In this document: positions 1,180 through 14,221 of the stretch, one piece after another
How the letters are laid out: the number at the start of each line of letters is the position of its first letter
Numbering within the stretch: position 1 is the stretch's first letter
Virus record (IMG/VR): IMGVR_UViG_2737471827_000008
Span: 1-21,396 of that record
Strand: one strand, 5' to 3'
DNA from: a virus
Lineage: Duplodnaviria; Heunggongvirae; Uroviricota; Caudoviricetes
DNA length: 21,396 nt
Made by a program: the position numbers and the translations under genes
Notes under the pieces: model-generated
Told to the model about the DNA's origin: nothing
Database searches by the model: none
Seen by the model: only the letters and a program-made list of their open reading frames with translations

Positions 1180-1781
1180 GGATTCACTCTCATTGTGTCA
1201 ATAACATGGACCGCCCCGCCTTCATGCGCGGTGCCACCGGAAATAATCGTTTCGTTGATATACGGATAGATCGTGATTTCTTCGCCAAGATAGCTGGCGG
1301 CTCCCACCCAATGCGGGCCGCTGGTCTGCAGATTGATGGACATGCCGATCATGTGGCGGCTACATGGTTTGGCATCGCTTATCAGTCGCTCAAGTTCCAG
1401 ATAGGTATCTTCAGTGATGCCCTGGTCCTGCACGCCGATATCCAGGCGAAACGTGCCCGGTGTTTCTCCGGTCTGCCACCACTCAATAATGCGGATCAGG
1501 AATCCGAACGGCTCCACCACCCGCCGCACGGCACTGGTGGTCCCTTTATGCTGATGAATATAAAAAGCATCCTTCACCACCTGGCGCTTGACGCTTTCTG
1601 TCCAGCCCTCGTCCCAGCGATCCACAGAGAACGCCCAGGCGAGATAAGGCAGGAAACTGACCGGACAGGTTGCCGGATTCCACAAATCACGAAGCGGCAC
1701 CTGCAGATCAGAAATCCCGCTGCAGGTTTGCGCCAGTCGGCGCTCCAGTGGTGTTGAACCCGGTGGCAGCAGACTATTCAT
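1176..1781 (-). CDS. I: Baseplate/tail protein I (P2 gpI-like)
   Basis: 201 aa ORF with N-terminal LLPPGSTPLERRLA motif typical of gpI; sits between J and H as in P2 and overlaps both neighbours. Confidence 0.75.
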   Translation of the reverse strand: MNSLLPPGSTPLERRLAQTCSGISDLQVPLRDLWNPATCPVSFLPYLAWAFSVDRWDEGWTESVKRQVVKDAFYIHQHKGTTSAVRRVVEPFGFLIRIIEWWQTGETPGTFRLDIGVQDQGITEDTYLELERLISDAKPCSRHMIGMSINLQTSGPHWVGAASYLGEEITIYPYINETIISGGTAHEGGAVHVIDTMRVNP

Positions 1782-2556
1782 CCGTTCCTCCGTTGGTTAC
1801 GCTCCACTGCGTACATGATGCCGCCTGTGTTTTGTTCAGGACCACATCCGCCAGAGGAGAAGCCAGCTCCACACGCTGCACCCCCTCAACATGCAGTGCG
1901 GCAAAGATGGCGCTACGGCGAATATCCCGACCAAGACGCGTCTGACTGGCGATGTACTTCTGCAGGCTGGCTTTTGCCGCTGCCATTACCGGCTCTGCTT
2001 CCGGTCCAGGATAGAGAAAAATGGTGGCTTCCACGCGATACGGGATGATTTCTGCGCTGCGAACCGTAAGACGGTCAGCCACCGGGCGGACGTTCTCACT
2101 GTTCAGAGCTTTTTCCACCACGTCCAGCAGGTCTTTTTCTGCAGTTCCATCGCCTTCGCGGCTAAGGACAGTCAGCACCACCTCTGCAGGTGCCGGGCTG
2201 GTTGCACTGGCATCCGCCACCCGACCGTCGGCGCTTCGGGCATGAAATTCATAAGCTGCAGTTGGCCCCGCAACAGAAAGCCCTTCAAAGGCTGCAGGCA
2301 CACGCAGGCGCAACGCTTCATCGCTTTCCATCACAGCTGCAACGGGCGGCACAGCATCATTATCAGCAGGCGTCACCGTCAGGCGTGTCACGTTGTAGTT
2401 GGCAGCGAGCTGGTCAAGATCGCCGCCCATCGCGTAAGCCACCATCACCGCCTGCGCGGCTTCGTTAATGCGCTGGCGCAGAAGCAACTCACGGTAAGCG
2501 TTCTCCTGCAACAATTTAGTGACGGGTTCAGATTCCAGTTCCAGCGTGCGGATCAC
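1774..2556 (-). CDS. J: Baseplate assembly protein J (P2 gpJ-like), N-terminally truncated; only a GTG start, possible pseudogene
   Basis: 260 aa ORF resembling the gpJ family as I recall it (P2 gpJ about 302 aa). Frame is open upstream only to a TAA at 2605-2607, with no ATG. Its GTG overlaps the stop of the R fragment. Confidence 0.6.
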   Translation of the reverse strand: MIRTLELESEPVTKLLQENAYRELLLRQRINEAAQAVMVAYAMGGDLDQLAANYNVTRLTVTPADNDAVPPVAAVMESDEALRLRVPAAFEGLSVAGPTAAYEFHARSADGRVADASATSPAPAEVVLTVLSREGDGTAEKDLLDVVEKALNSENVRPVADRLTVRSAEIIPYRVEATIFLYPGPEAEPVMAAAKASLQKYIASQTRLGRDIRRSAIFAALHVEGVQRVELASPLADVVLNKTQAASCTQWSVTNGGTDE

Positions 2557-2696
2557 TGCTTCCTGCTCATCTTTCGGATGGCCCCCGTGGCAACCAGCGA
2601 ACCGTTATCCACAAACAGATGCAGTTTGTCCGGGTTATTGCGAACATAAGGCACCGCTTTATTGAGGGCGTGGCGCAGGGATTGTGGTTTGTTCAC
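2553..2696 (-). pseudogene. R: Tail completion protein R (P2 gpR-like), N-terminal 47-codon fragment
   Basis: GTG start at 2696 preceded by AGGAG. Translation VNKPQSLRHALNKAVPYVRNNPDKLHLFVDNGS... resembles the gpR N-terminus as recalled, then diverges and stops after 47 codons (P2 gpR about 155 aa). Confidence 0.4.
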
Positions 2697-2949
2697 TGTT
2701 TCGCTCCTGACACGCAATAATCATGTCCACTTTGTCTGCACAGACCGCCCAGGCGGCCTCCGTTTCATCCAGCAACGCATTCAGATCACCGTTAGTGCGC
2801 GGTGCTGCCTGCTCCAGCCGACACGGCGTCACTCGCGGACAACCACTGACGGTAAGCTGCACCTCCGGTGAGCGTCGGACGTTCCCGCAGCCGGATAATG
2901 TCAGCAGGCAAAGGAGTATCAGCCCAGCGGCGTAAATCCTCGTTCTCAC
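2659..2949 (-). CDS. lysC: LysC-like outer-membrane spanin lipoprotein (Rz1-like), overlapping lysB in another frame
   Basis: 96 aa ORF with signal peptide and lipobox LTLSG|C. Begins inside lysB in a different frame and extends past it, the P2 lysB/lysC overlapped-spanin arrangement. Start is GTG, so the exact start is uncertain. Confidence 0.55.
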   Translation of the reverse strand: MRTRIYAAGLILLCLLTLSGCGNVRRSPEVQLTVSGCPRVTPCRLEQAAPRTNGDLNALLDETEAAWAVCADKVDMIIACQERNSEQTTIPAPRPQ

Positions 2950-3220
2950 GTTTCAGTTTCTCAATCCGGCGTTGTCGTTGTCTCAGCAGTGCGCTGGTCT
3001 GTTCTGCTTCGGCATAGAGCCGCGCCTGCTCCCGGTTATTGGTTTCAGTCAGAATGGACAGGCTGATAAGCTGGCTGTTGCTCTTTGCCAGTGCCTGGCT
3101 TTTGCTCTGCAGCTCGTCTGCCTGCGTGCTAATGGTCTGGCTGGCATCAGCCAGCCGCCACGTCTGCCAGCCCAGAGCCGCCAGTAATAACGCCAGCACA
3201 ACCAGCAGCAACCGGTTCAT
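2792..3220 (-). CDS. lysB: LysB-like inner-membrane spanin (Rz-like)
   Basis: 142 aa with an N-terminal transmembrane segment (LLLVVLALLLAALGW) followed by a charged coiled-coil-like region; ATGA overlap with lysA. Confidence 0.65.
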   Translation of the reverse strand: MNRLLLVVLALLLAALGWQTWRLADASQTISTQADELQSKSQALAKSNSQLISLSILTETNNREQARLYAEAEQTSALLRQRQRRIEKLKRENEDLRRWADTPLPADIIRLRERPTLTGGAAYRQWLSASDAVSAGAGSTAH

Positions 3221-3594
3221 GCTGCTACCTGTTGCGCCATCTGATTACGGGTGATCCAGAAGGCAATAACGGTCAGTAGATAAAAGACCAGGGTAATAGC
3301 CCACCCCGTCCATGCGAGACTTACAACAATCAGCAATCGCATCACCCAACTGATAAATACGTTTTCTTTTCGGGTAATTGTCTTCAGCAAAGATGCCCTT
3401 AACTCCTGCCAGAGCGGGCCATTCTGAATTAACGCAGCCAGTGCTACCGGAATTACCGCCCATGTCAGCAAACAGGCTACCCAAACGCCGGACGCTGCCA
3501 GTACCGGAAAGATCCCCTGCGGATACACCATTGCTGCGATTAACAGCGCCATCCATAACATCAGAAACAGTCCGCTGATTAATTTCTTTTTCAT
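3217..3594 (-). CDS. lysA: LysA-like polytopic membrane protein (lysis timing)
   Basis: ATG at 3594 (MKKKLISGLF...) with GGGAG upstream; about 125 aa with four hydrophobic segments; sits where P2 lysA sits, downstream of the endolysin. Confidence 0.55.
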   Translation of the reverse strand: MKKKLISGLFLMLWMALLIAAMVYPQGIFPVLAASGVWVACLLTWAVIPVALAALIQNGPLWQELRASLLKTITRKENVFISWVMRLLIVVSLAWTGWAITLVFYLLTVIAFWITRNQMAQQVAA

Positions 3595-3595
3595 T

Positions 3596-4108
3596 TCAGT
3601 TTGCTCCCTGTAAACACCAGGCCATCTCCCGCGCACGGCGGTTATCCAGCCCCTGATTAAACACACCTTTTACATAAACCCAGCGCGGCAACTGTCGGCA
3701 CGCATCCGCCCAGCGCCGCTGATTGAGCAATTTCACCAGCGTGGAGCTGCAGGCATTGCCTGTCCCCACGTTGAAGGCAAACGACACCACCGAGTCATAC
3801 ACCTTTTGTGGCGGCTGTTGCTTCACACATCTTTCCAGCGCCCGCTCCACACGCAGCACGTTGGAGATAAGCCCTTCTGCTGCCTGTCGTTCCGTAATGG
3901 TTTTGCCGGGAATGACGCCCGACGTATTACCAATGCCGTCAGTCCATACACCCGCGCTGCACTGATACGGCTGCAGACGACAGCCTTCGTAATCGGCAAT
4001 CAGTTTCAGTCCCTCCACGGAGGTGTGAAGCTGCTGAAAACCCGGCAGCGTGGCAGCAATAGCCAGCACGGTCCCGACAAGGCAGCGTTTAACGATTGAT
4101 GGATTCAT
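3596..4108 (-). CDS. Endolysin, T4-lysozyme-like fold with an N-terminal SAR (signal-anchor-release) segment; phage 21 R / P1 Lyz type
   Basis: 170 aa; weakly hydrophobic Gly/Ala-rich N-terminus (VGTVLAIAATLPGF) followed by lysozyme motifs (YEGCRLQPYQCSAGVWTDGIGNT...FAFNVGTGN...RRW). Confidence 0.8.
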   Translation of the reverse strand: MNPSIVKRCLVGTVLAIAATLPGFQQLHTSVEGLKLIADYEGCRLQPYQCSAGVWTDGIGNTSGVIPGKTITERQAAEGLISNVLRVERALERCVKQQPPQKVYDSVVSFAFNVGTGNACSSTLVKLLNQRRWADACRQLPRWVYVKGVFNQGLDNRRAREMAWCLQGAN

Positions 4109-4304
4109 AGTCCTCCCGCGAGATCTGCCCGTCGCGCAGAAGCTGGTAGGCTTTGTGTTTGTAGTACCAGTTGATAGCCAGCATCAGCACACCAATCATC
4201 AGGCCGCCCAGCGTTGAGGCATCCTTGATGGACAAATCGCCCAGCCAGGCCAGCACAACGGCGATGCAGTACGTGATAAAGGCGCTGATTCGCTCAAGCG
4301 TCAT
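4089..4304 (-). CDS. Holin, probable pinholin-type (two transmembrane segments, charged C-terminus)
   Basis: 71 aa with two hydrophobic helices and a basic/acidic tail; immediately upstream of, and overlapping, the SAR endolysin gene. Confidence 0.6.
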   Translation of the reverse strand: MTLERISAFITYCIAVVLAWLGDLSIKDASTLGGLMIGVLMLAINWYYKHKAYQLLRDGQISREDYESINR

Positions 4305-4307
4305 AAT

Positions 4308-4511
4308 TCAGTCCCATAGCTGGACGGTCTGCACGGTGGTGGTTGTCGGAATGTCCGGCAGCTCCACCTGCAGCCCGTGAGGTAAAAAGGGGCCATATTC
4401 GGCAAGCCCCGGATTTGCCTTCAGTACCTGCTCCGTGACACCCTGCGTGCGCCCGTAATGACGCCAGCAAAGCGCGTCCACCGTGTCATACTGATGCGCA
4501 CGCACTTTCAT
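4308..4511 (-). CDS. X: Tail protein X (P2 gpX-like)
   Basis: 67 aa, same size and position as P2 gpX; ATGA overlap with gene L. Confidence 0.7.
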   Translation of the reverse strand: MKVRAHQYDTVDALCWRHYGRTQGVTEQVLKANPGLAEYGPFLPHGLQVELPDIPTTTTVQTVQLWD

Positions 4512-4975
4512 CAGATAAGCTCCACTGTGCAGTGCGGCGCGTCCTGTACCCGGCTGATGGCCCAGCGGGCGTCACGCCATAAATCACCGCTGGCTTCCGC
4601 CAGTTCCTCGCCCCGCTTCACACCGGATGCCGTGGCGTCATAGTCCTGGTAACGTTCGTTGAGCATGGCGCGTGCCCAGCAGTAAACCGCGTTGAAATAG
4701 TGCTGAATGCGCTCACTTTTGCCGTCCAGCTGTTCCGCCGGAACCTCTGCCAGCGAGGCATACCCCAGCATCTGCTGGCGTCTGCGAAACTCATACAGCT
4801 CTGCGTTGACCTCCGAAATTGCCGACAGCGCAACCTGCTTTAAACGCGGCTGCGTCACCGTGCCGTCAGTGCGCATGACACTGCGAAACTCCGACAGGTC
4901 CACATCAGGCCAGAACGGCGTATTTCTGATGATTTCCGCCTGTTCCGGTGCCTGTTCTGGCGCAACAAACTTCAT
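4511..4975 (-). CDS. L: Head completion/stabilisation protein (P2 gpL-like)
   Basis: Start placed at ATG 4975 (MKFVAPEQ...) with AGGAGA upstream; the 5038 ORF start is a GTG with no RBS. Position after M matches P2. Confidence 0.75.
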   Translation of the reverse strand: MKFVAPEQAPEQAEIIRNTPFWPDVDLSEFRSVMRTDGTVTQPRLKQVALSAISEVNAELYEFRRRQQMLGYASLAEVPAEQLDGKSERIQHYFNAVYCWARAMLNERYQDYDATASGVKRGEELAEASGDLWRDARWAISRVQDAPHCTVELI

Positions 4976-7775: not shown

Positions 7776-9542
7776 ATGAACACCACACTGACACCCGCAG
7801 ATCTCGATCCCCGTCGGCAGGCCATGCTGCTGTACTTTCAGGGATACCGCGTAGCCCGCATTGCTGAAATGCTGGGCGAGAAAGTTGCAACCGTTCACAG
7901 CTGGAAAAAACGCGACAAGTGGGGTGATTATGGGCCGCTGGATCAGATGCAGCTCACCACCGCCGCACGCTACTGCCAGCTCATCATGAAGGAGCACAAA
8001 GAAGGGAAAGATTTCAAAGAGATTGACCTGCTGGCGCGCCAGTCGGAACGCCACGCGCGGATCGGCAAGTTTAACAATGGCGGCAACGAAGCCGACTTAA
8101 ACCCTAACGTCGCCAACCGCAACAAAAGCCCGCGCCGTCAGCCGGAAAAGAACGTTTTCACCGATGAACAGATTGAGAAGCTGGAAGAAATTTTCCATTC
8201 CTCCATGTTCAACTACCAGCGCCACTGGTGGGAAGCCGGAAAAACCAACCGCATCCGCAACCTGCTGAAGTCACGCCAGATCGGCGCGACCTTTTACTTT
8301 GCCCGTGAAGCCCTGATTGACGCCCTGCTTACCGGACGTAACCAGATTTTCCTTTCCGCCAGTAAGGCACAGGCCCACGTCTTTAAACAGTACATCATCG
8401 ACTTCGCCAAAGAAGTGGAGGTGGAGCTGAAAGGCGATCCGATGGTGCTTCCCAACGGGGCCACGCTTTACTTCCTCGGCACCAATGCCCGCACTGCCCA
8501 GAGTTATCACGGCAACCTGTATCTGGATGAATATTTCTGGATACCAAAATTCCAGGAGCTGCGCAAAGTGGCTTCCGGTATGGCTATTCACAAAAAATGG
8601 CGACAAACCTATTTTTCCACGCCATCCAGCCTGACACACAGTGCTTATCCGTTCTGGTCCGGTGCGCTGTTCAACCGTGGGCGCAACAAAGCCGATAAGG
8701 TGGACATCGACCTGTCCCACAGCAATCTGGCCCCCGGCCTGCTGTGCGCAGACGGGCAATACCGCCAGATAGTCACCGTGGAAGATGCGGTGCGCGGCGG
8801 CTGTAACCTGTTCGACCTTGACCAGTTGCGCATGGAGTACAGCCCGGACGAATACCAGAACCTGCTGATGTGCGAGTTCGTGGACGATCTCGCGTCCGTG
8901 TTCCCGCTCAGCGAGCTGCAGGCGTGCATGGTGGACAGCTGGGAAGTCTGGACCGACTTTCATGCACTGGCTCTGCGCCCCTTTGGCTGGCGCGAAGTGT
9001 GGATCGGTTATGACCCGGCAAAAGGTACGCAAAACGGCGACAGCGCCGGATGCGTAGTGGTGGCACCGCCAGCCGTGCCGGGCGGTAAGTTCCGCATTCT
9101 TGAGCGTCACCAGTGGCGCGGGATGGACTTCCGCGCCCAGGCTGACGCCATCAAAAAACTGACCGAACAGTACAACGTGACATACATCGGCATCGACTCA
9201 ACTGGCGTCGGCCACGGGGTTTACGAGAACGTGAAAGCATTCTTTCCTGCCGTCCGGGAGTTTGTCTACAACCCCAACGTTAAAAACGCCCTGGTACTCA
9301 AGGCCTACGACATTATCAGTCACCGCCGCCTAGAATTTGACGCCGGACACACCGACATTGCGCAGTCATTCATGGCAATCCGTCGCGCCACCACCGCCAG
9401 CGGCAACCGCCCGACCTATGAAGCCAGCCGCAGCGAAGAAGCCAGCCATGCCGATCTGGCCTGGGCAACAATGCACGCACTCTTTAACGAACCGCTGCAG
9501 GGCGAGTCCGCCAATACCAGCAATATTGTGGAGATTTTTTGA
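7776..9542 (+). CDS. P: Terminase ATPase (large) subunit (P2 gpP-like)
   Basis: 588 aa; N-terminus MNTTLTPADLDPRRQA... resembles gpP as recalled; divergent from O, followed by Q. Confidence 0.9.
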   Translation: MNTTLTPADLDPRRQAMLLYFQGYRVARIAEMLGEKVATVHSWKKRDKWGDYGPLDQMQLTTAARYCQLIMKEHKEGKDFKEIDLLARQSERHARIGKFNNGGNEADLNPNVANRNKSPRRQPEKNVFTDEQIEKLEEIFHSSMFNYQRHWWEAGKTNRIRNLLKSRQIGATFYFAREALIDALLTGRNQIFLSASKAQAHVFKQYIIDFAKEVEVELKGDPMVLPNGATLYFLGTNARTAQSYHGNLYLDEYFWIPKFQELRKVASGMAIHKKWRQTYFSTPSSLTHSAYPFWSGALFNRGRNKADKVDIDLSHSNLAPGLLCADGQYRQIVTVEDAVRGGCNLFDLDQLRMEYSPDEYQNLLMCEFVDDLASVFPLSELQACMVDSWEVWTDFHALALRPFGWREVWIGYDPAKGTQNGDSAGCVVVAPPAVPGGKFRILERHQWRGMDFRAQADAIKKLTEQYNVTYIGIDSTGVGHGVYENVKAFFPAVREFVYNPNVKNALVLKAYDIISHRRLEFDAGHTDIAQSFMAIRRATTASGNRPTYEASRSEEASHADLAWATMHALFNEPLQGESANTSNIVEIF

Positions 9543-10579
9543 TGGGAAAGAGTAAGAAGAACCGCGCTGCGGCGACGAAACAGAGCCAGCTTAAAAGCCA
9601 GACTACAGCCGAAGCATTCAGCTTCGGTGATCCCATTCCAGTACTTGACCGCCGCGAACTGCTGGACTATGTGGAATGCGTACAGACAGATCGCTGGTAT
9701 GAGCCTCCTGTCAGCTTTGACGGACTGGCGCGCACCTTCCGCGCTGCTGTGCATCACAGTTCCCCGATTGCAGTAAAGTGCAACATTCTGACCAGTACCT
9801 ACATCCCTCACCCGCTGCTCAGCCAGCAGGCTTTTTCACGTTTTGTGCAGGACTATCTGGTATTTGGTAACGCCTACCTGGAGAAACGCACGAACCGCTT
9901 CGGTGAAGTTATCGCCCTTGAACCGGCCCTGGCAAAATACACCCGACGCGGGTTAGACCTGGATACCTACTGGTTTGTGCAATACGGTATGACAACACAG
10001 CCGTATCAGTTCACGAAAGGCAGCATCTTTCATCTGATGGAACCGGACATTAACCAGGAGATCTACGGCCTGCCCGGCTATCTTTCTGCCATTCCGTCAG
10101 CCCTGCTCAATGAGTCCGCCACGCTGTTCCGCCGTAAGTATTACATCAACGGCAGCCATGCAGGCTTCATCATGTACATGACCGACGCCGCGCAGAATCA
10201 GGAGGATGTGAACAATCTCCGCAACGCGATGAAAAGCGCCAAAGGTCCAGGCAACTTCCGCAACCTGTTTATGTACTCGCCTAACGGCAAAAAGGACGGC
10301 CTTCAGATCATCCCTTTGTCAGAAGTTGCGGCGAAGGATGAGTTTCTGAATATCAAAAATGTCAGCCGCGATGACATGATGGCAGCACATCGCGTTCCGC
10401 CACAGATGATGGGGATTATGCCAAATAATGTTGGGGGTTTTGGGGATGTGGAGAAGGCTAGTCTTGTATTTGTTCGCAATGAATTGATGCCACTACAGAA
10501 GCGACTACATGAACTAAACGAATGGGTGGGTGCAGAAGTAATACGTTTTGATGACTATGTTTTAGGTGTTCAGGAATAA
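9542..10579 (+). CDS. Q: Portal protein (P2 gpQ-like)
   Basis: About 345 aa; ATG at 9542 overlaps the P stop (TGATG). Confidence 0.85.
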   Translation: MGKSKKNRAAATKQSQLKSQTTAEAFSFGDPIPVLDRRELLDYVECVQTDRWYEPPVSFDGLARTFRAAVHHSSPIAVKCNILTSTYIPHPLLSQQAFSRFVQDYLVFGNAYLEKRTNRFGEVIALEPALAKYTRRGLDLDTYWFVQYGMTTQPYQFTKGSIFHLMEPDINQEIYGLPGYLSAIPSALLNESATLFRRKYYINGSHAGFIMYMTDAAQNQEDVNNLRNAMKSAKGPGNFRNLFMYSPNGKKDGLQIIPLSEVAAKDEFLNIKNVSRDDMMAAHRVPPQMMGIMPNNVGGFGDVEKASLVFVRNELMPLQKRLHELNEWVGAEVIRFDDYVLGVQE

Positions 10580-10582
10580 AAG

Positions 10583-10610
10583 AAAAGGCGCTAATCTCAG
10601 CGCCTTTTAT
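10583..10610. terminator. Bidirectional intrinsic terminator between convergent Q and the STAS-like gene
   Basis: aaaaGGCGCTaatctcAGCGCCtttt: 6-bp GC-rich stem flanked by A-run and T-run. Confidence 0.6.
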
Positions 10611-10625
10611 CTAACTAACCATATA

Positions 10626-10964
10626 TTAACAAACGGCGTATAAACCATCAAATCCAACGGAATGAACCTTTTTTGATGCTACTTCATTACTACGGCGTTG
10701 GATCACTTTTGCAATACTTTTTAAAATTGAAGGGGGTGCATTGCGAACCTTAACTTGACTCAAAACTTTGGTTACACCGAATTTCACTACCAAAACACCA
10801 AAGATTTCATCAGAGTATGATTCTGAAATTGAATAAACACCGCTCAGATCTAAATCTACGGTATACCCTTCTTTAATGAACCCTTCAATCTTGTGTCGTT
10901 GGGGGATAGCCTGATTGCGCGAAGCCAGGTCACCCTCGGGTAACTTGTATGCGATTTTGTTCAT
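10626..10964 (-). CDS. STAS-like (anti-sigma-antagonist fold, DUF4325-like) small protein; second gene of the accessory operon
   Basis: 112 aa containing VDLDLSGVYSISESYS, resembling the DLSGV/Ser-rich loop of RsbV/SpoIIAA-type STAS domains. ATG overlaps the stop of the upstream gene (TAATG); AGGAGG RBS embedded in the upstream gene's 3' end. Confidence 0.5.
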   Translation of the reverse strand: MNKIAYKLPEGDLASRNQAIPQRHKIEGFIKEGYTVDLDLSGVYSISESYSDEIFGVLVVKFGVTKVLSQVKVRNAPPSILKSIAKVIQRRSNEVASKKVHSVGFDGLYAVC

Positions 10965-11938
10965 TACTCTCCTCCTAACGCCCGCATTATTTCCATAAGC
11001 TGAGGGTCATTTTCTTCGCTATCTTTATCGACTGCCAGTTCATGAATCTTAAAACGGCAAGAAATTGCTACACCCGGCCATTCAGTACGTAATTCAGTAT
11101 AGCTCACTTCATCACCTATTGCTTCTAAGCATACATTTCCTGAAGCCAGTTGCAATTCCCCATTATATGTTTTTATCAATTTCATCAAGTGATACAACCC
11201 AAGCCCTTGATGATTATTATCTTTTTCTTTGACCGAAACCCCGTGGCCAAACACACTACCCCCAATAAAGTCCTGGGGAAGCTGCTGTGCCCAATCATCC
11301 TGCAAATCAGCATGCTTAGATGAATGTCCCTCTTGAATACACCATGCGATCGCATCCTGGTGAGTCTCAATTCCGGGTATACCAGCTCGCCGCAATTCTC
11401 GGAGAAATCCTAACCCACAGTCCGCCAAAGAAAATTCTAAATAGTGCTCTTTTTTTTGAGTGTGGGGTACAGCCGAACGTTGTGCAAAAGAAAAACCCGT
11501 TGATTTTCCATGCGACCAAACGTTATCGTGAAGCTCACCTATAACATGGGTTAGATCTGTAAGTCCCTTGGGACAATCTCTCGGATCACGATCAGGGAAT
11601 GTTAACTGCCTTACACAACTGTTAATACTACCAGTGGCAACGTCAACAGCTTCAACATTGGTTAATGCTGTAACCAAACTGTAATTTCTTCCAACATTTA
11701 CACGTTCCTGTTGATACTGATCCTCTCCCCATAAAGCACCATGTAAATTGATAGCTCGCATATAGCCAGGGCATGACAAAACACAGTTATCTTCGGTAAT
11801 TTTGTGATGATTCACGTAAGCTGCTAAGACAGTGATAAAACCAGGATGCCAATGATTGTTTGGCAATTGCAATTCATTAGTTTCCTTTTGATGAAACGCA
11901 GCGGTATGCACAATAGCGTCTTTTAATCCTAACCCCAT
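10964..11938 (-). CDS. GHKL-family (HATPase_c, RsbW/histidine-kinase-like) ATPase/kinase with an N-terminal domain of unknown function, about 120 aa
   Basis: 324 aa. Bergerat-fold motifs readable in translation: N-box IGELHDNVWSHG, G1 box LADCGLGF, G2 box HQGLGLYHL. AT-rich relative to flanking late genes. Confidence 0.6.
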   Translation of the reverse strand: MGLGLKDAIVHTAAFHQKETNELQLPNNHWHPGFITVLAAYVNHHKITEDNCVLSCPGYMRAINLHGALWGEDQYQQERVNVGRNYSLVTALTNVEAVDVATGSINSCVRQLTFPDRDPRDCPKGLTDLTHVIGELHDNVWSHGKSTGFSFAQRSAVPHTQKKEHYLEFSLADCGLGFLRELRRAGIPGIETHQDAIAWCIQEGHSSKHADLQDDWAQQLPQDFIGGSVFGHGVSVKEKDNNHQGLGLYHLMKLIKTYNGELQLASGNVCLEAIGDEVSYTELRTEWPGVAISCRFKIHELAVDKDSEENDPQLMEIMRALGGE

Positions 11939-11967
11939 GAACCGAACCTTTTTTATGCATTTTTCTT

Positions 11968-11996
11968 ATCATATAACTTAGGACTGATCAGCGCAA
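11968..11996 (-). promoter_or_regulatory. Candidate sigma70 promoter for the GHKL/STAS operon
   Basis: Minus strand TTGCGC-17 bp-TATGAT (forward 11991-11996 and 11968-11973), about 30 bp upstream of the 11938 ATG; spacer contains a GATC. Confidence 0.3.
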
Positions 11997-12056
11997 AGCT
12001 CCCGACACTATTGAATCATACTAAATTAAGGCCTATACCACACAGCACAGCGCGCG

Positions 12057-12075
12057 CTCGTATCCCCGCCACGCC
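12057..12075 (-). other. cos-like sequence (candidate cohesive-end site)
   Basis: Minus strand reads GGCGTGGCGGGGATACGAG. The first 13 nt match the 19-nt cohesive end of phage 186 as I recall it (GGCGTGGCGGGGAAAGCAT); flanked by a CATG-rich repeat region. Confidence 0.35.
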
Positions 12076-12548
12076 TGCCCGCTTTATGTAGTAGTTTTCA
12101 TGCACCTGCATGACATGAGCAAAAGCTCGCCAGTTCTGGCATGTCTTAGCCAAACCGATCCTCAAACGATCATGCGAACTCATGCAGCATAGACATGCAT
12201 GACATGAAAATCGGTCAAACCTTGAAACCAGTCATAAATATGAGCCAGCTTAATACACACTAAATAGCTGCGTCTAATACTGCTACACCTGCCGTTTACT
12301 GACATGTGGCATGTCGCGTAAGGACAACATACTGTAGGCCAGATACAGCAGGATCAGGCGAAGAAAACGGCCCCACGCCTTACCCAGCAAGGGCCAAGGG
12401 CTAACCGAAAGTGGAGCATTATTCCGCGCAGTTATTTAGTGTCAGCTCTTTTGAGCTAAAATCAAGTTTCAACATGAGGGTCTGTGCAGGCTTTCTCATC
12501 CCGCTAATTTATACAGCACACCTATATGGCTATGAGTTTGTCATGCCC

Positions 12549-12580
12549 GCTAATCCTGTTAGGATTAGCCTTGTTTTTTT
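12549..12580 (+). terminator. Perfect 9-bp inverted repeat with T-tract (intrinsic-terminator-like hairpin), 18 bp upstream of the lipoprotein ATG
   Basis: GCTAATCCT-gtt-AGGATTAGC followed by cttgttttttt. Confidence 0.35.
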
Positions 12581-12597
12581 ACGATTGGGATAGGGAT

Positions 12598-13404
12598 ATG
12601 AAGAAATTAACTGGCGTAATTGCTTTTGCTCTGCTGCTTACTGCTTGTGACAAACCGAAGATCGATGCATCAAGCGATCAGTCGATGAAAGAGTCCATTC
12701 AAAAAGTAAGAGAGTCCTTACCTGCAGATAAAAAAGCTCAGTTTGATGATGCAGTTAAAGTCGTTGCCTTTAGCCAAATCAACATGAGAGAGCTAATGCA
12801 GGCTGGAACGTCTTCTGGGGACGTCTACGAAACAAAAATTAAGTCAGCGCTGGAAGGTAAAACTGGTGATGAGGTTATAAATTACGCACAAACTATTCGC
12901 CTTGAGCGTGAGAAGAGAGAGAAAGAACAGGCTCTGCAAGAAATAAAAGAACTGGAAGCCAAACAAACCTCTGCAACACAGGCTGCGGAAAAAATGAAAG
13001 CCTTCAAGGTCGAACGTTCCCGTTTTTATTTCCAGAAAGAGGATTACGGCAATGATCAGCCAATTCTGGATATTAGCGTTGAAAACGGAACAGACAAAGC
13101 GGTTGCCAGAGTATTCTTCAAAGGAGTTATTGCCAGCCCAGGAAGAAGCGTCCCTTGGTTCTCTGACGTCTTCAACTATAAAATTTCTGGAGGTCTGGAA
13201 CCAGGTGAGAAAGCCAACTGGAAATTAGCCCCTAATAGATACTCTGATTGGGGAAAACTTAAAGTTCCGGCTGATGCTATATTTACCGTCACAGTCATTG
13301 GCCTTGAAGACGCAGATGGGAAATCGATCTATGGTGACGCCGAGTTTTCAGAACGCGATGCTGACAGACTGAATCAACTTAGAGATAAGTACCTTTCTAA
13401 ATAA
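12598..13404 (+). CDS. Lipoprotein of unknown function (accessory gene)
   Basis: Start placed at ATG 12598: MKKLTGVIAFALLLTA|CD is a classical lipoprotein signal peptide with Asp at +2 (inner-membrane retention rule). About 268 aa mature, charged, coiled-coil-like middle region. The ORF-track extension from 12526 runs through the terminator-like hairpin. Confidence 0.6.
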   Translation: MKKLTGVIAFALLLTACDKPKIDASSDQSMKESIQKVRESLPADKKAQFDDAVKVVAFSQINMRELMQAGTSSGDVYETKIKSALEGKTGDEVINYAQTIRLEREKREKEQALQEIKELEAKQTSATQAAEKMKAFKVERSRFYFQKEDYGNDQPILDISVENGTDKAVARVFFKGVIASPGRSVPWFSDVFNYKISGGLEPGEKANWKLAPNRYSDWGKLKVPADAIFTVTVIGLEDADGKSIYGDAEFSERDADRLNQLRDKYLSK

Positions 13405-13428
13405 TCAAAATTAAAGCTACTTCAGCAT

Positions 13429-13455
13429 AGTCCCTGAGAATATATATCAGGGACT
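13429..13455. repeat. 9-bp perfect inverted repeat between the two lipoprotein genes
   Basis: AGTCCCTGA-gaatatata-TCAGGGACT; no T-tract follows. Confidence 0.3.
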
Positions 13456-13512
13456 ACCAAATCACGGCAGATACCCCTTAGTTAAATAATGCTAAACGCT
13501 TAGAAAGAGACC

Positions 13513-13812
13513 ATGAAACGTATAACTTTCTCCTTTACGTTAGTAGCAATCATCATAGCCTTAGCTGGATGTGCTTTGCCAGATAAAGACGGCGACTTCG
13601 GAGCTTATGTTCATGCCTGTCAGCAATATGCATACGGAAAATCCTATGCCTTTGAGAATAGAGACTTCGCGTATAAGGTCTGTAAGGACGCGGCGAAACT
13701 GTGGAGTGAAGAAGTTCCTGGCTATATCATCAGGCAAATTCAACTACATCCTGAAATACCCAGCGAAGAAATTAAATATGCAGCCATGGCCGGCTCTTTG
13801 GGTAACAACTAA
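13513..13812 (+). CDS. Small lipoprotein of unknown function (accessory gene)
   Basis: 99 aa; signal peptide with lipobox LAG|C (MKRITFSFTLVAIIIALAGCA...); three further Cys in the mature part. Confidence 0.55.
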   Translation: MKRITFSFTLVAIIIALAGCALPDKDGDFGAYVHACQQYAYGKSYAFENRDFAYKVCKDAAKLWSEEVPGYIIRQIQLHPEIPSEEIKYAAMAGSLGNN

Positions 13813-13825
13813 ATCAACTTATGAG

Positions 13826-13849
13826 AAAGGGGCTTAATGCCCCTTTTCG
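13826..13849. terminator. Intrinsic terminator between convergent lipoprotein gene and the LexA-controlled small gene
   Basis: aaAGGGGCttaatGCCCCTtttc. Confidence 0.55.
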
Positions 13850-13879
13850 GTTCCCTTATCAAGTCCTAACGAAACAAGC

Positions 13880-14068
13880 TCAACTGATTACATCCATCGA
13901 CCTACTGTATTCATGGCTTCGAATTTTCGCCATCAACTCATCAGTCAATTCAGAAACCCACTGCAGAGCTAGCCCCTTCTCTTCATCACTACACTCACTA
14001 GCCGCTACAAGCTTAAGAAAAAAATCAATGCGCTGGAGCTTCAAAGACTCCAAAAAATAGTCCTGCAT
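13880..14068 (-). CDS. Small protein (62 aa) behind a LexA box; candidate SOS-inducible antirepressor (Tum-like position)
   Basis: ATG at 14068 (MQDYFLESLKLQ...) preceded by AGGAGG with 4-nt spacer. Immediately downstream of gene A, same strand, where phage 186 carries tum. The longer ORF-track version (start 14170) would include the promoter. Confidence 0.5.
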   Translation of the reverse strand: MQDYFLESLKLQRIDFFLKLVAASECSDEEKGLALQWVSELTDELMAKIRSHEYSRSMDVIS

Positions 14069-14109
14069 CTTTCCTCCTATAACACCATACGCAATACTGT
14101 ACATATAAC

Positions 14110-14152
14110 CACTGTTTATATTTACAGTATATAATAATCTTACTGATGTAAA
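14110..14152 (-). promoter_or_regulatory. LexA (SOS) box overlapping a candidate promoter
   Basis: caCTGTttatatttACAGta at 14110-14129 fits CTGT-N8-ACAG with an AT-rich spacer. On the minus strand a TTTACA (-35-like, 14147-14152) and TATACT (-10-like, 14126-14131) overlap the box. Confidence 0.55.
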
Positions 14153-14221
14153 ACGTTTTTTTACGTTCATCAGCCTGATATGCCTGGTATTATTAAGAGC
14201 ACGAATTGTTAACCCGCGTGA

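Follow-up and report, generated by a model that had tools for sequence, protein, structure and literature searches.

The 21,396-nucleotide stretch of DNA analysed here, referred to throughout as the window (IMG/VR record IMGVR_UViG_2737471827_000008), is a P2-like (Peduoviridae) prophage of Escherichia coli. Between its portal gene Q and the cos site it carries two minus-strand genes, here named K and S, which encode a GHKL (Bergerat) kinase/ATPase-like protein and a small STAS-like protein of the DUF4325 family. The pair is an effector-less variant of the kinase/STAS switch and is distantly related to the CapKS and VapKSC systems. GHKL-kinase/STAS pairs were first shown to act as DNA-damage-activated immunity switches in 2026, and both known switches encode their output nearby, either as the repressor domain of CapS or as the PIN toxin VapC (Chambers et al., EMBO J 2026, PMC13373217).

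Organization of the K-S Operon

The positions of the two genes, of their expression signals and of the slot boundaries are collected in Table 1. An earlier note on this DNA, made from the letters alone, had described a compact AT-rich cassette of two open reading frames (ORFs) with a candidate promoter of its own, translational coupling and a bidirectional terminator, and each of these features was recovered. Genes P and Q have a G+C content of 0.53-0.60, which drops to 0.39-0.46 in the cassette. K ends and S starts within a TAATG (10962-10966), in which the two genes have one base in common, the ribosome-binding sequence AGGAGG of S is embedded in K, and the terminator is shared with the convergent gene Q. 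A default consensus promoter scan upstream of K found nothing. In an alignment of five divergent loci with otherwise unrelated flanks, TTGC.. and TAT(G/T)AT blocks lying 17 nt apart were invariant, and the promoter therefore travels with the module; its TTGCGC begins at the very base with which the earlier note had closed the cassette. Comparison with a Klebsiella allele (85% amino-acid identity) gave ratios of nonsynonymous to synonymous substitution (dN/dS) of 0.037 (K) and 0.032 (S), synonymous sites being almost saturated, and values of 0.03-0.04 mark both as real genes under strong purifying selection. The cassette is an autonomous two-gene operon with its own promoter and terminator.

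Table 1. Features of the K-S cassette and of the slot that holds it, in window positions.
Feature	Position	Strand	Remarks
K gene	10964-11938	-	ORF, 324 aa; coordinates include the stop codon
S gene	10626-10964	-	ORF, 112 aa; PF14213
Predicted promoter	11968-11996	-	-35 TTGCGC (11996-11991), 17-nt spacer, -10 TATGAT (11973-11968)
Shine-Dalgarno sequence of S (AGGAGG)	10971-10976	-	6 nt upstream of the S start, within the 3' end of K
Bidirectional intrinsic terminator, shared with convergent Q	10583-10608	.	perfect 11-bp stem, T runs on both sides
K N-terminal domain	11573-11938	-	residues 1-122, alpha/beta
K GHKL (Bergerat) kinase/ATPase domain	11039-11572	-	residues ~123-300
K N box ELHDNVWSHG (E135...N139)	11507-11536	-	(nearly) invariant in 45 homologues
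K G1 box DCGLG	11408-11422	-	D173, G175, G177 invariant in 45 homologues
K G2 box QGLGL (residues 244-248)	11195-11209	-	G245, L246, G247, L248 invariant
S loop S45-I-S47-E48-S49-Y50-S-D-E-I-F-G56	10797-10832	-	candidate phospho-acceptor region, from family conservation
Portal gene Q (slot boundary)	9539-10579	+	ORF list and annotation
cos region (slot boundary)	12050-12199	.	conserved non-coding element of ~150 bp with GGCGTGGCGGGGA at 12063-12075(-)

Fold and Family Assignment of K and S

The C-terminal half of K is a Bergerat fold nearest to SpoIIAB/RsbW-type anti-sigma-factor serine kinases. In the AlphaFold2 model (predicted local distance difference test score, 85), an N-terminal domain precedes the GHKL domain. 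Anti-sigma-factor kinases are the best structural matches of K, further matches including many histidine-kinase CA domains and the ATPase domains of GyrB and MutL. The three motifs singled out by the earlier note, ELHDNVWSHG, DCGLG and GLGL, are shared by the family as listed in Table 1, and its likening of K to RsbW/SpoIIAB with an added N-terminal part of ~120 aa was borne out by fold, motifs and domain boundaries. The ATP lid contains an insert of ~35 residues, modelled with low confidence, in which K208, W216, Q218, P221 and G226 are invariant. The N-terminal domain is possibly a divergent STAS-like sensor domain.

A search of a 90%-clustered database returned 295 homologues of K, none of them named and none with Pfam domains. 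When a K profile was run exhaustively against 1.84 billion representative proteins, 169 clusters were found at E <=1e-30, 268 at E <=1e-10 and 1126 at E <=1e-3, with lengths nearly always of 300-330 aa. K also matches the phage family phrog_3364 (E 2e-66). The family is thus widespread, comprising at least 169 clusters at 50% identity in Proteobacteria and beyond, in addition to isolated P2-like phages.

S matches Pfam PF14213 (DUF4325, STAS-like) with E 3.1e-9 and 36.8 bits, above the cut-off of 23, in agreement with the STAS-like character that the earlier note had given to the small protein, and all 60 of its homologues belong to PF14213. In a Pfam scan of the 112-aa protein DUF4325 was the only domain, with no winged helix-turn-helix (wHTH) or other DNA-binding domain. 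Conservation centres on a serine-rich loop in which S45, S47, S49, Y50, D52, E53, F55 and G56 are invariant. The assignment of both proteins by fold and homology is made with high confidence.

Two further observations concern S. Its last four residues (109-112; 10629-10640) correspond to a hydrophobic tetrapeptide, [W/Y/L]-[A/V/I]-x-[C/A] (for example YAVC, WATC or WASA), with which most enterobacterial homologues terminate; this tail is missing from more distant homologues and may serve as a protease degron or in partner binding. In addition, residues 14-96 match positions 314-397 of the PADLOC model PDLC02567 (DrmA) with E 4.7e-6, covering 84 of its 1750 profile positions, which suggests that some DISARM DrmA helicases carry a DUF4325-like STAS domain.

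Linkage, Distribution and Neighbourhood of the Pair

Genomic context was compared in 57 loci taken from contigs of one genome per species. In 56 of them K is followed directly by a co-oriented DUF4325 gene, and the remaining locus stops at a contig edge. In locus L053 a single ORF matches both profiles and represents a natural K-S fusion; phrog_5816 (441 positions) likewise covers both proteins. The two-gene layout is intact in ~45 of the loci, and the hosts range from Gamma- and Betaproteobacteria to Planctomycetes, including Enterobacteria, Ralstonia phages and Gallionella. K and S are functionally linked and form a unit that is tightly co-inherited and mobile.

No conserved third gene accompanies the pair in these loci, the 652 neighbouring genes falling into 589 clusters, and the gene downstream is usually convergent. 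Same-strand upstream genes, considered as partners in some loci, were rejected as housekeeping genes (ThiC, peptidase M3) or unrelated ones. Mobile neighbours include integrases, resolvases and P2-type portal and terminase genes. Defence-type neighbours comprise AbiJ, a DUF4041/T5orf172 protein, type I and type III restriction-modification subunits, MADS mad3/mad8, PD-Lambda-1 and AriA-like genes. Many loci lie outside prophages, and some have plain housekeeping neighbours, such as thiC. A megablast search of a phage collection with the cassette gave no match; by tblastn, the pair was found near the int/cos end of two isolated P2-like phages, Ralstonia phiRSA1 and Burkholderia vB_SBP7. In phiRSA1 (NC_009382.1; positions ~4385-4744 of locus L067), the S (DUF4325) gene directly after ORF51 is missing from the annotation (hmmsearch E 1.7e-26).

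The Q-to-cos Interval as a Cargo Slot

The sequence GGCGTGGCGGGGA on the minus strand was identified as cos, which spans ~12057-12075, and the physical end of the record of the Salmonella phage SEN8 maps to ~12076. The cassette accordingly sits between Q and cos, where the earlier note had placed it. An identical copy (100% over 1461 bases) is present in the chromosome of STEC1587, flanked, as annotated, by terminase, portal, replication endonuclease gpA, CI repressor and integrase genes. Among complete E. coli genomes, 25 carry the cassette (19 at >=98% identity over its full length), against 1244 of 5426 with a related portal gene. In relatives the content of the slot varies and is always convergent with Q: Fels-2 has an unrelated 565-aa protein, vB_EcoM-813R9 a protein with a Hypoth_Ymh domain, E. 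coli HS a 463-aa protein and E. coli KFu019 three other genes. These comparisons support the reading of the Q-to-cos interval as an accessory cargo slot in which the K-S pair is a rare cargo. They agree with the variable slot proposed earlier, the pair being absent from most relatives that have the portal gene.

The gpA-gpQ region beside cos is a documented anti-phage hotspot of P2-like phages (Rousset et al., 2022, PMC9122126). Table S5A of that study names exactly this pair, WP_004011553 + WP_032175284, as 'hypothetical + DUF4325'; it was catalogued only, and is absent from the eight P2-hotspot systems that were cloned (Rousset et al., 2022, PMC9122126). The hotspot, known for old, tin and others, is the same genomic place as that of K-S, and its cargo behaves in the same way. 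Knowledge of the function of K-S would thus explain a recurrent, uncharacterised occupant of a P2 defence hotspot.

Comparison with Characterized Systems

The earlier note had called the module an undescribed candidate for defence or partner switching. As regards named systems this holds: PADLOC 2.0 gave no usable system match for K (only PDC-M65A, E 0.007, 13 bits) and, for S, no system match beyond the local one to the DrmA model; NCBIfam had no match to either protein, and neither is listed in the supplementary tables of DefensePredictor and of Vassallo et al. The term goes too far in two respects, since the pair was catalogued in 2022 (Rousset et al., 2022) and is distant kin of the CapKS and VapKSC systems of 2026, the closest characterised ones (Chambers et al., 2026).

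VapK consists of STAS and GHKL domains; in the proposed mechanism it would free VapC, the PIN toxin, by phosphorylating VapS on S48, and the operon protected against phage Bas42 by ~2 logs (Chambers et al., 2026, PMC13373217). VapS is itself a DUF4325 protein (E 2.7e-17), and genuine vapKSC loci have the order K, DUF4325, PIN. When the K family was aligned by hhalign with a VapK profile of 30 homologues, a match of 92% probability (E 5e-7) was obtained over 179 columns (K 58-297, VapK 92-287), in which the invariant Y59 and R79 of K pair with the invariant F92 and R111 of VapK. The two families also share an ATP-lid motif, W-x-[CA]-Q-x-G-N-[ST]-[ST], seen as AIeWCIQeGNSsK in the K family and as CLrWAfQsGNTT in VapK. 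The direct S-VapS alignment is weak (E 0.0014), and single sequences of the K and VapK families match at best with a phmmer E of 7e-5. By the shared DUF4325 domain, the profile match and the lid motif, K is distantly homologous to VapK, and S to VapS.

The likeness extends to gene order, tight coupling, a K protein of ~300 aa that lacks Pfam matches and has an N-terminal domain ahead of a SpoIIAB-like GHKL domain, an S protein of ~115 aa with DUF4325 and a short C-terminal tail, and mobile or defence contexts. Unlike VapK, however, K has no sequence relation to its counterpart in its first 56 residues and carries the ~35-residue lid insert, the position that aligns with VapS S48 is Glu in the S family, and the tail of S is not conserved and is absent in many members. 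Membership in VapKSC fails on the defining third gene: a phmmer search with VapC against all ORFs of the window and the 57 loci found no VapC/PIN gene at E <=10.

CapK combines helix-turn-helix (HTH), STAS and GHKL domains; activated by single-stranded DNA, it phosphorylates CapS (STAS + wHTH) on S54, whereupon CapS leaves the DNA, and the two control adjacent immune operons (Chambers et al., 2026, PMC13373217). K-S resembles this system in having an anti-sigma-type GHKL kinase gene with a STAS partner gene directly downstream and in its association with anti-phage loci. Membership in CapKS was nevertheless rejected: K begins with an alpha/beta domain instead of an HTH, S has no wHTH, and K-S is followed by the terminator and the convergent Q, not by a regulated operon. 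The hhalign match of K with CapK is weak (probability 10%).

With SpoIIAB and RsbW, K shares the GHKL serine-kinase fold and its N, G1 and G2 boxes. It differs from the SpoIIAB/SpoIIAA and RsbW/RsbV pairs in its extra N-terminal domain and long lid insert and in falling below threshold for HATPase_c and HATPase_c_2, and S is DUF4325 rather than STAS or STAS_2. A further comparison is offered by P4-hotspot system 69, 'HATPase_c / DUF4325 / 1-TM protein', which was catalogued with no assay (Rousset et al., 2022, Table S1B; PMC9122126). This system, from the hotspot next to cos in the P4 satellite, likewise joins a kinase-like protein to a DUF4325 protein, and PADLOC does not contain it either. 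Unlike K-S, it has a third, transmembrane gene, and its homology with K is not demonstrable (hhalign E 0.02 for K and 8e-5 for S).

Proposed Mechanism and Competing Explanations

The explanation preferred here, with modest confidence, is that K-S is an autonomous operon carried as accessory prophage cargo and a kinase/STAS switch that would act as follows. By analogy with CapK/CapS and VapK/VapS, an infection or stress cue, possibly single-stranded DNA as for CapK, would bind K and turn on its kinase activity. Activated K would then phosphorylate S within the invariant S47-E48-S49 loop, with S49 or S47 as candidate acceptors; that K phosphorylates S is, on the same analogy, probable. Phosphorylation would in turn alter the binding partner of S. 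Because no effector is encoded, the output would be either K itself, once released from S, or a trans partner of S or K from host or phage. The genomic context makes a role in lysogenic conversion likely, of the anti-phage or stress-response type seen in other hotspot cargo, and an anti-phage role in particular is put forward tentatively.

A bolder form of this proposal, in which K-S is a complete effector-less phospho-switch whose kinase senses infection or DNA damage and whose free STAS adaptor or freed kinase then seizes a conserved host or phage protein in trans, is rather doubtful. If true, it would give the CapK/VapK kinase-STAS superfamily an output mode of a new sort and could be a new kinase-toxin/STAS-antitoxin type of abortive-infection system. 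Finding the target of K-S would tell apart a switch that reaches phage or host proteins in trans and one whose weapon is the kinase. At 1.4 kb and with its own promoter and terminator, the cassette is simple to clone and would provide an easy test of output by a switch with no effector encoded in cis.

Several observations weigh against the switch proposed above. K matches Pfam HATPase_c only below threshold (E 0.09) and a profile search of PDB sequences with K found nothing, so that its assignment as a kinase rests on fold and motifs. The S residue aligned with VapS S48 and SpoIIAA S58 is not Ser: by hhalign and MAFFT, VapS S48 falls on E48, a position occupied by E, D or G across the family and flanked by S47 and S49. 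CapS S54-F55, compared by eye, resembles S49-Y50, and the true register may be one residue off, so that the acceptor residue is uncertain. The basic loop with which CapK engages single-stranded DNA is not conserved as basic in alignments of the K family, and the activating ligand of K may thus not be single-stranded DNA. In the DefensePredictor screen, a three-gene locus with a STAS-like protein, VPUS, which by its size may be a vapKSC locus, scored as non-defensive, so relatives of K-S may not protect against every phage panel. Finally, with no effector encoded, the output of K-S is conjecture.

Among the competing explanations, the one that fares best casts K as a toxin, a promiscuous Ser/Thr kinase or ATPase, and S as the antitoxin that holds it inactive, infection freeing K to cause growth arrest and abortive infection. 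Unphosphorylated SpoIIAA locks SpoIIAB in its ADP-bound state and provides a model for S as antagonist or pseudosubstrate. A toxic kinase would fit the translational coupling of the two genes and the lack of a separate effector, and it is consistent with the observation that intact K never occurs without S, while in ~8 of the 57 loci a disrupted or truncated K stands beside an intact S. The hydrophobic [W/Y]-[A/V]-x-[C/A] tail of many enterobacterial S proteins has been counted in its favour as well, the idea of a degron being speculation. However, the loss of K with retention of S is not significant, being expected from a K:S gene-length ratio of 3:1 (p ~0.1), and many of the loci come from metagenome-assembled genomes. 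The natural fusion in L053 and the joint phrog_5816 agree poorly with a labile free antitoxin, and high specificity for the STAS substrate is the established rule among SpoIIAB-type kinases. A toxic K is on balance unlikely.

An improbable alternative is a CapKS-like regulator, in which K would sense DNA damage and, via S, control transcription or the lysis-lysogeny decision of the prophage or of neighbouring cargo. CapK and CapS do so for adjacent immune operons, and SOS-linked genes, including DinI-like ones, occur in the cos-proximal region of these phages. Against this, S has no DNA-binding domain in its 112 aa, the terminator that closes the operon faces the convergent Q, which leaves no operon downstream, and across the 57 loci neighbours are not conserved, many of the loci lying outside prophages.

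A partner switch of the classical kind, modelled on SpoIIAB/SpoIIAA or RsbW/RsbV and aimed at a sigma factor of the host or at another transcription factor, is the alternative that the earlier note had raised. It would accord with the anti-sigma-factor kinases as the best structural matches of K, but those kinases lack its 120-residue N-terminal domain and long lid insert. Moreover, the pair is accompanied by neither a sigma factor gene nor a PP2C phosphatase gene; both are absent from the 25 commonest Pfam families of the 150 neighbours scanned, and the rest of the window consists of P2 genes and other cargo. With hosts as different as Enterobacteria and Ralstonia phages, Gallionella and Planctomycetes, the module is unlikely to act on one specific host sigma factor, and this explanation as a whole is decidedly improbable.

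The pair might instead serve the phage, not protect the lysogen, by acting during lytic growth or by countering host defences. Anti-defence genes are also found in phage hotspots, and the pair is present in P2-like phages that form virions; yet in many cases the pair is found away from phages, beside housekeeping genes or in islands that are bounded by integrases and contain restriction-modification and Abi genes. With a sigma-70-type promoter of its own and an orientation convergent with the late operon, the cassette moreover resembles the lysogenic-conversion genes old, tin and fun (P2 biology: PMC9122126). Such a role is very improbable. That the pair is a decayed VapKSC remnant, its toxin lost and no current function left, would suit the distant VapK/VapS homology and the absence of VapC but may be dismissed with near certainty for a distinct family of 169 clusters at E <=1e-30, uniformly ~320 aa long, with an intact two-gene layout, a conserved promoter and dN/dS of ~0.03.

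Further Features of the Prophage

The cos element itself is common to 85 P2-like phage records, Fels-2 and SopEPhi among them, and keeps 80-91% identity across Klebsiella, Yersinia, Salmonella, Escherichia, Aeromonas and Erwinia phage records. It reaches far past the 19-nt cohesive end and presumably includes terminase recognition sequences. At the other boundary of the slot, portal similarity in most E. coli relatives ends 30-120 bases before the Q stop (query positions 756-852 of 880), which places the recombination boundary of the slot inside the 3' end of Q (10400-10579).

An Rfam scan of the window found no RNA family. Compared with the otherwise collinear STEC1587 prophage (96-98% identity), the window lacks ~2.6 kb (positions 1769-4395 of locus L001), with a junction at ~2579-2580. 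The missing segment holds the 3' end of the baseplate gene J, gpW, gpV, a DUF6216 cargo gene, gpS and most of gpR; the prophage is therefore probably tail-defective, although its K-S cassette is still intact. The ORF at 1891-2649(+), initially taken for possible cargo, lies antisense at the deletion junction and is probably spurious. In the lysis-gene region, ~430 bp (3175-3603) have no counterpart in STEC1587, where the interval is ~50 bp, and represent a small replacement.

On the far side of cos (12198-13879), the cargo is unlike that of STEC1587 although the K-S cassette is identical, which indicates that the two sides of cos assort their cargo independently. This far-side cargo includes a 292-aa protein (12526-13404(+)) with a DUF6694 domain (E 4e-22) and a lipoprotein-like N-terminus, and two small ORFs with no Pfam match lie at 13513-13812(+) and 13880-14170(-).

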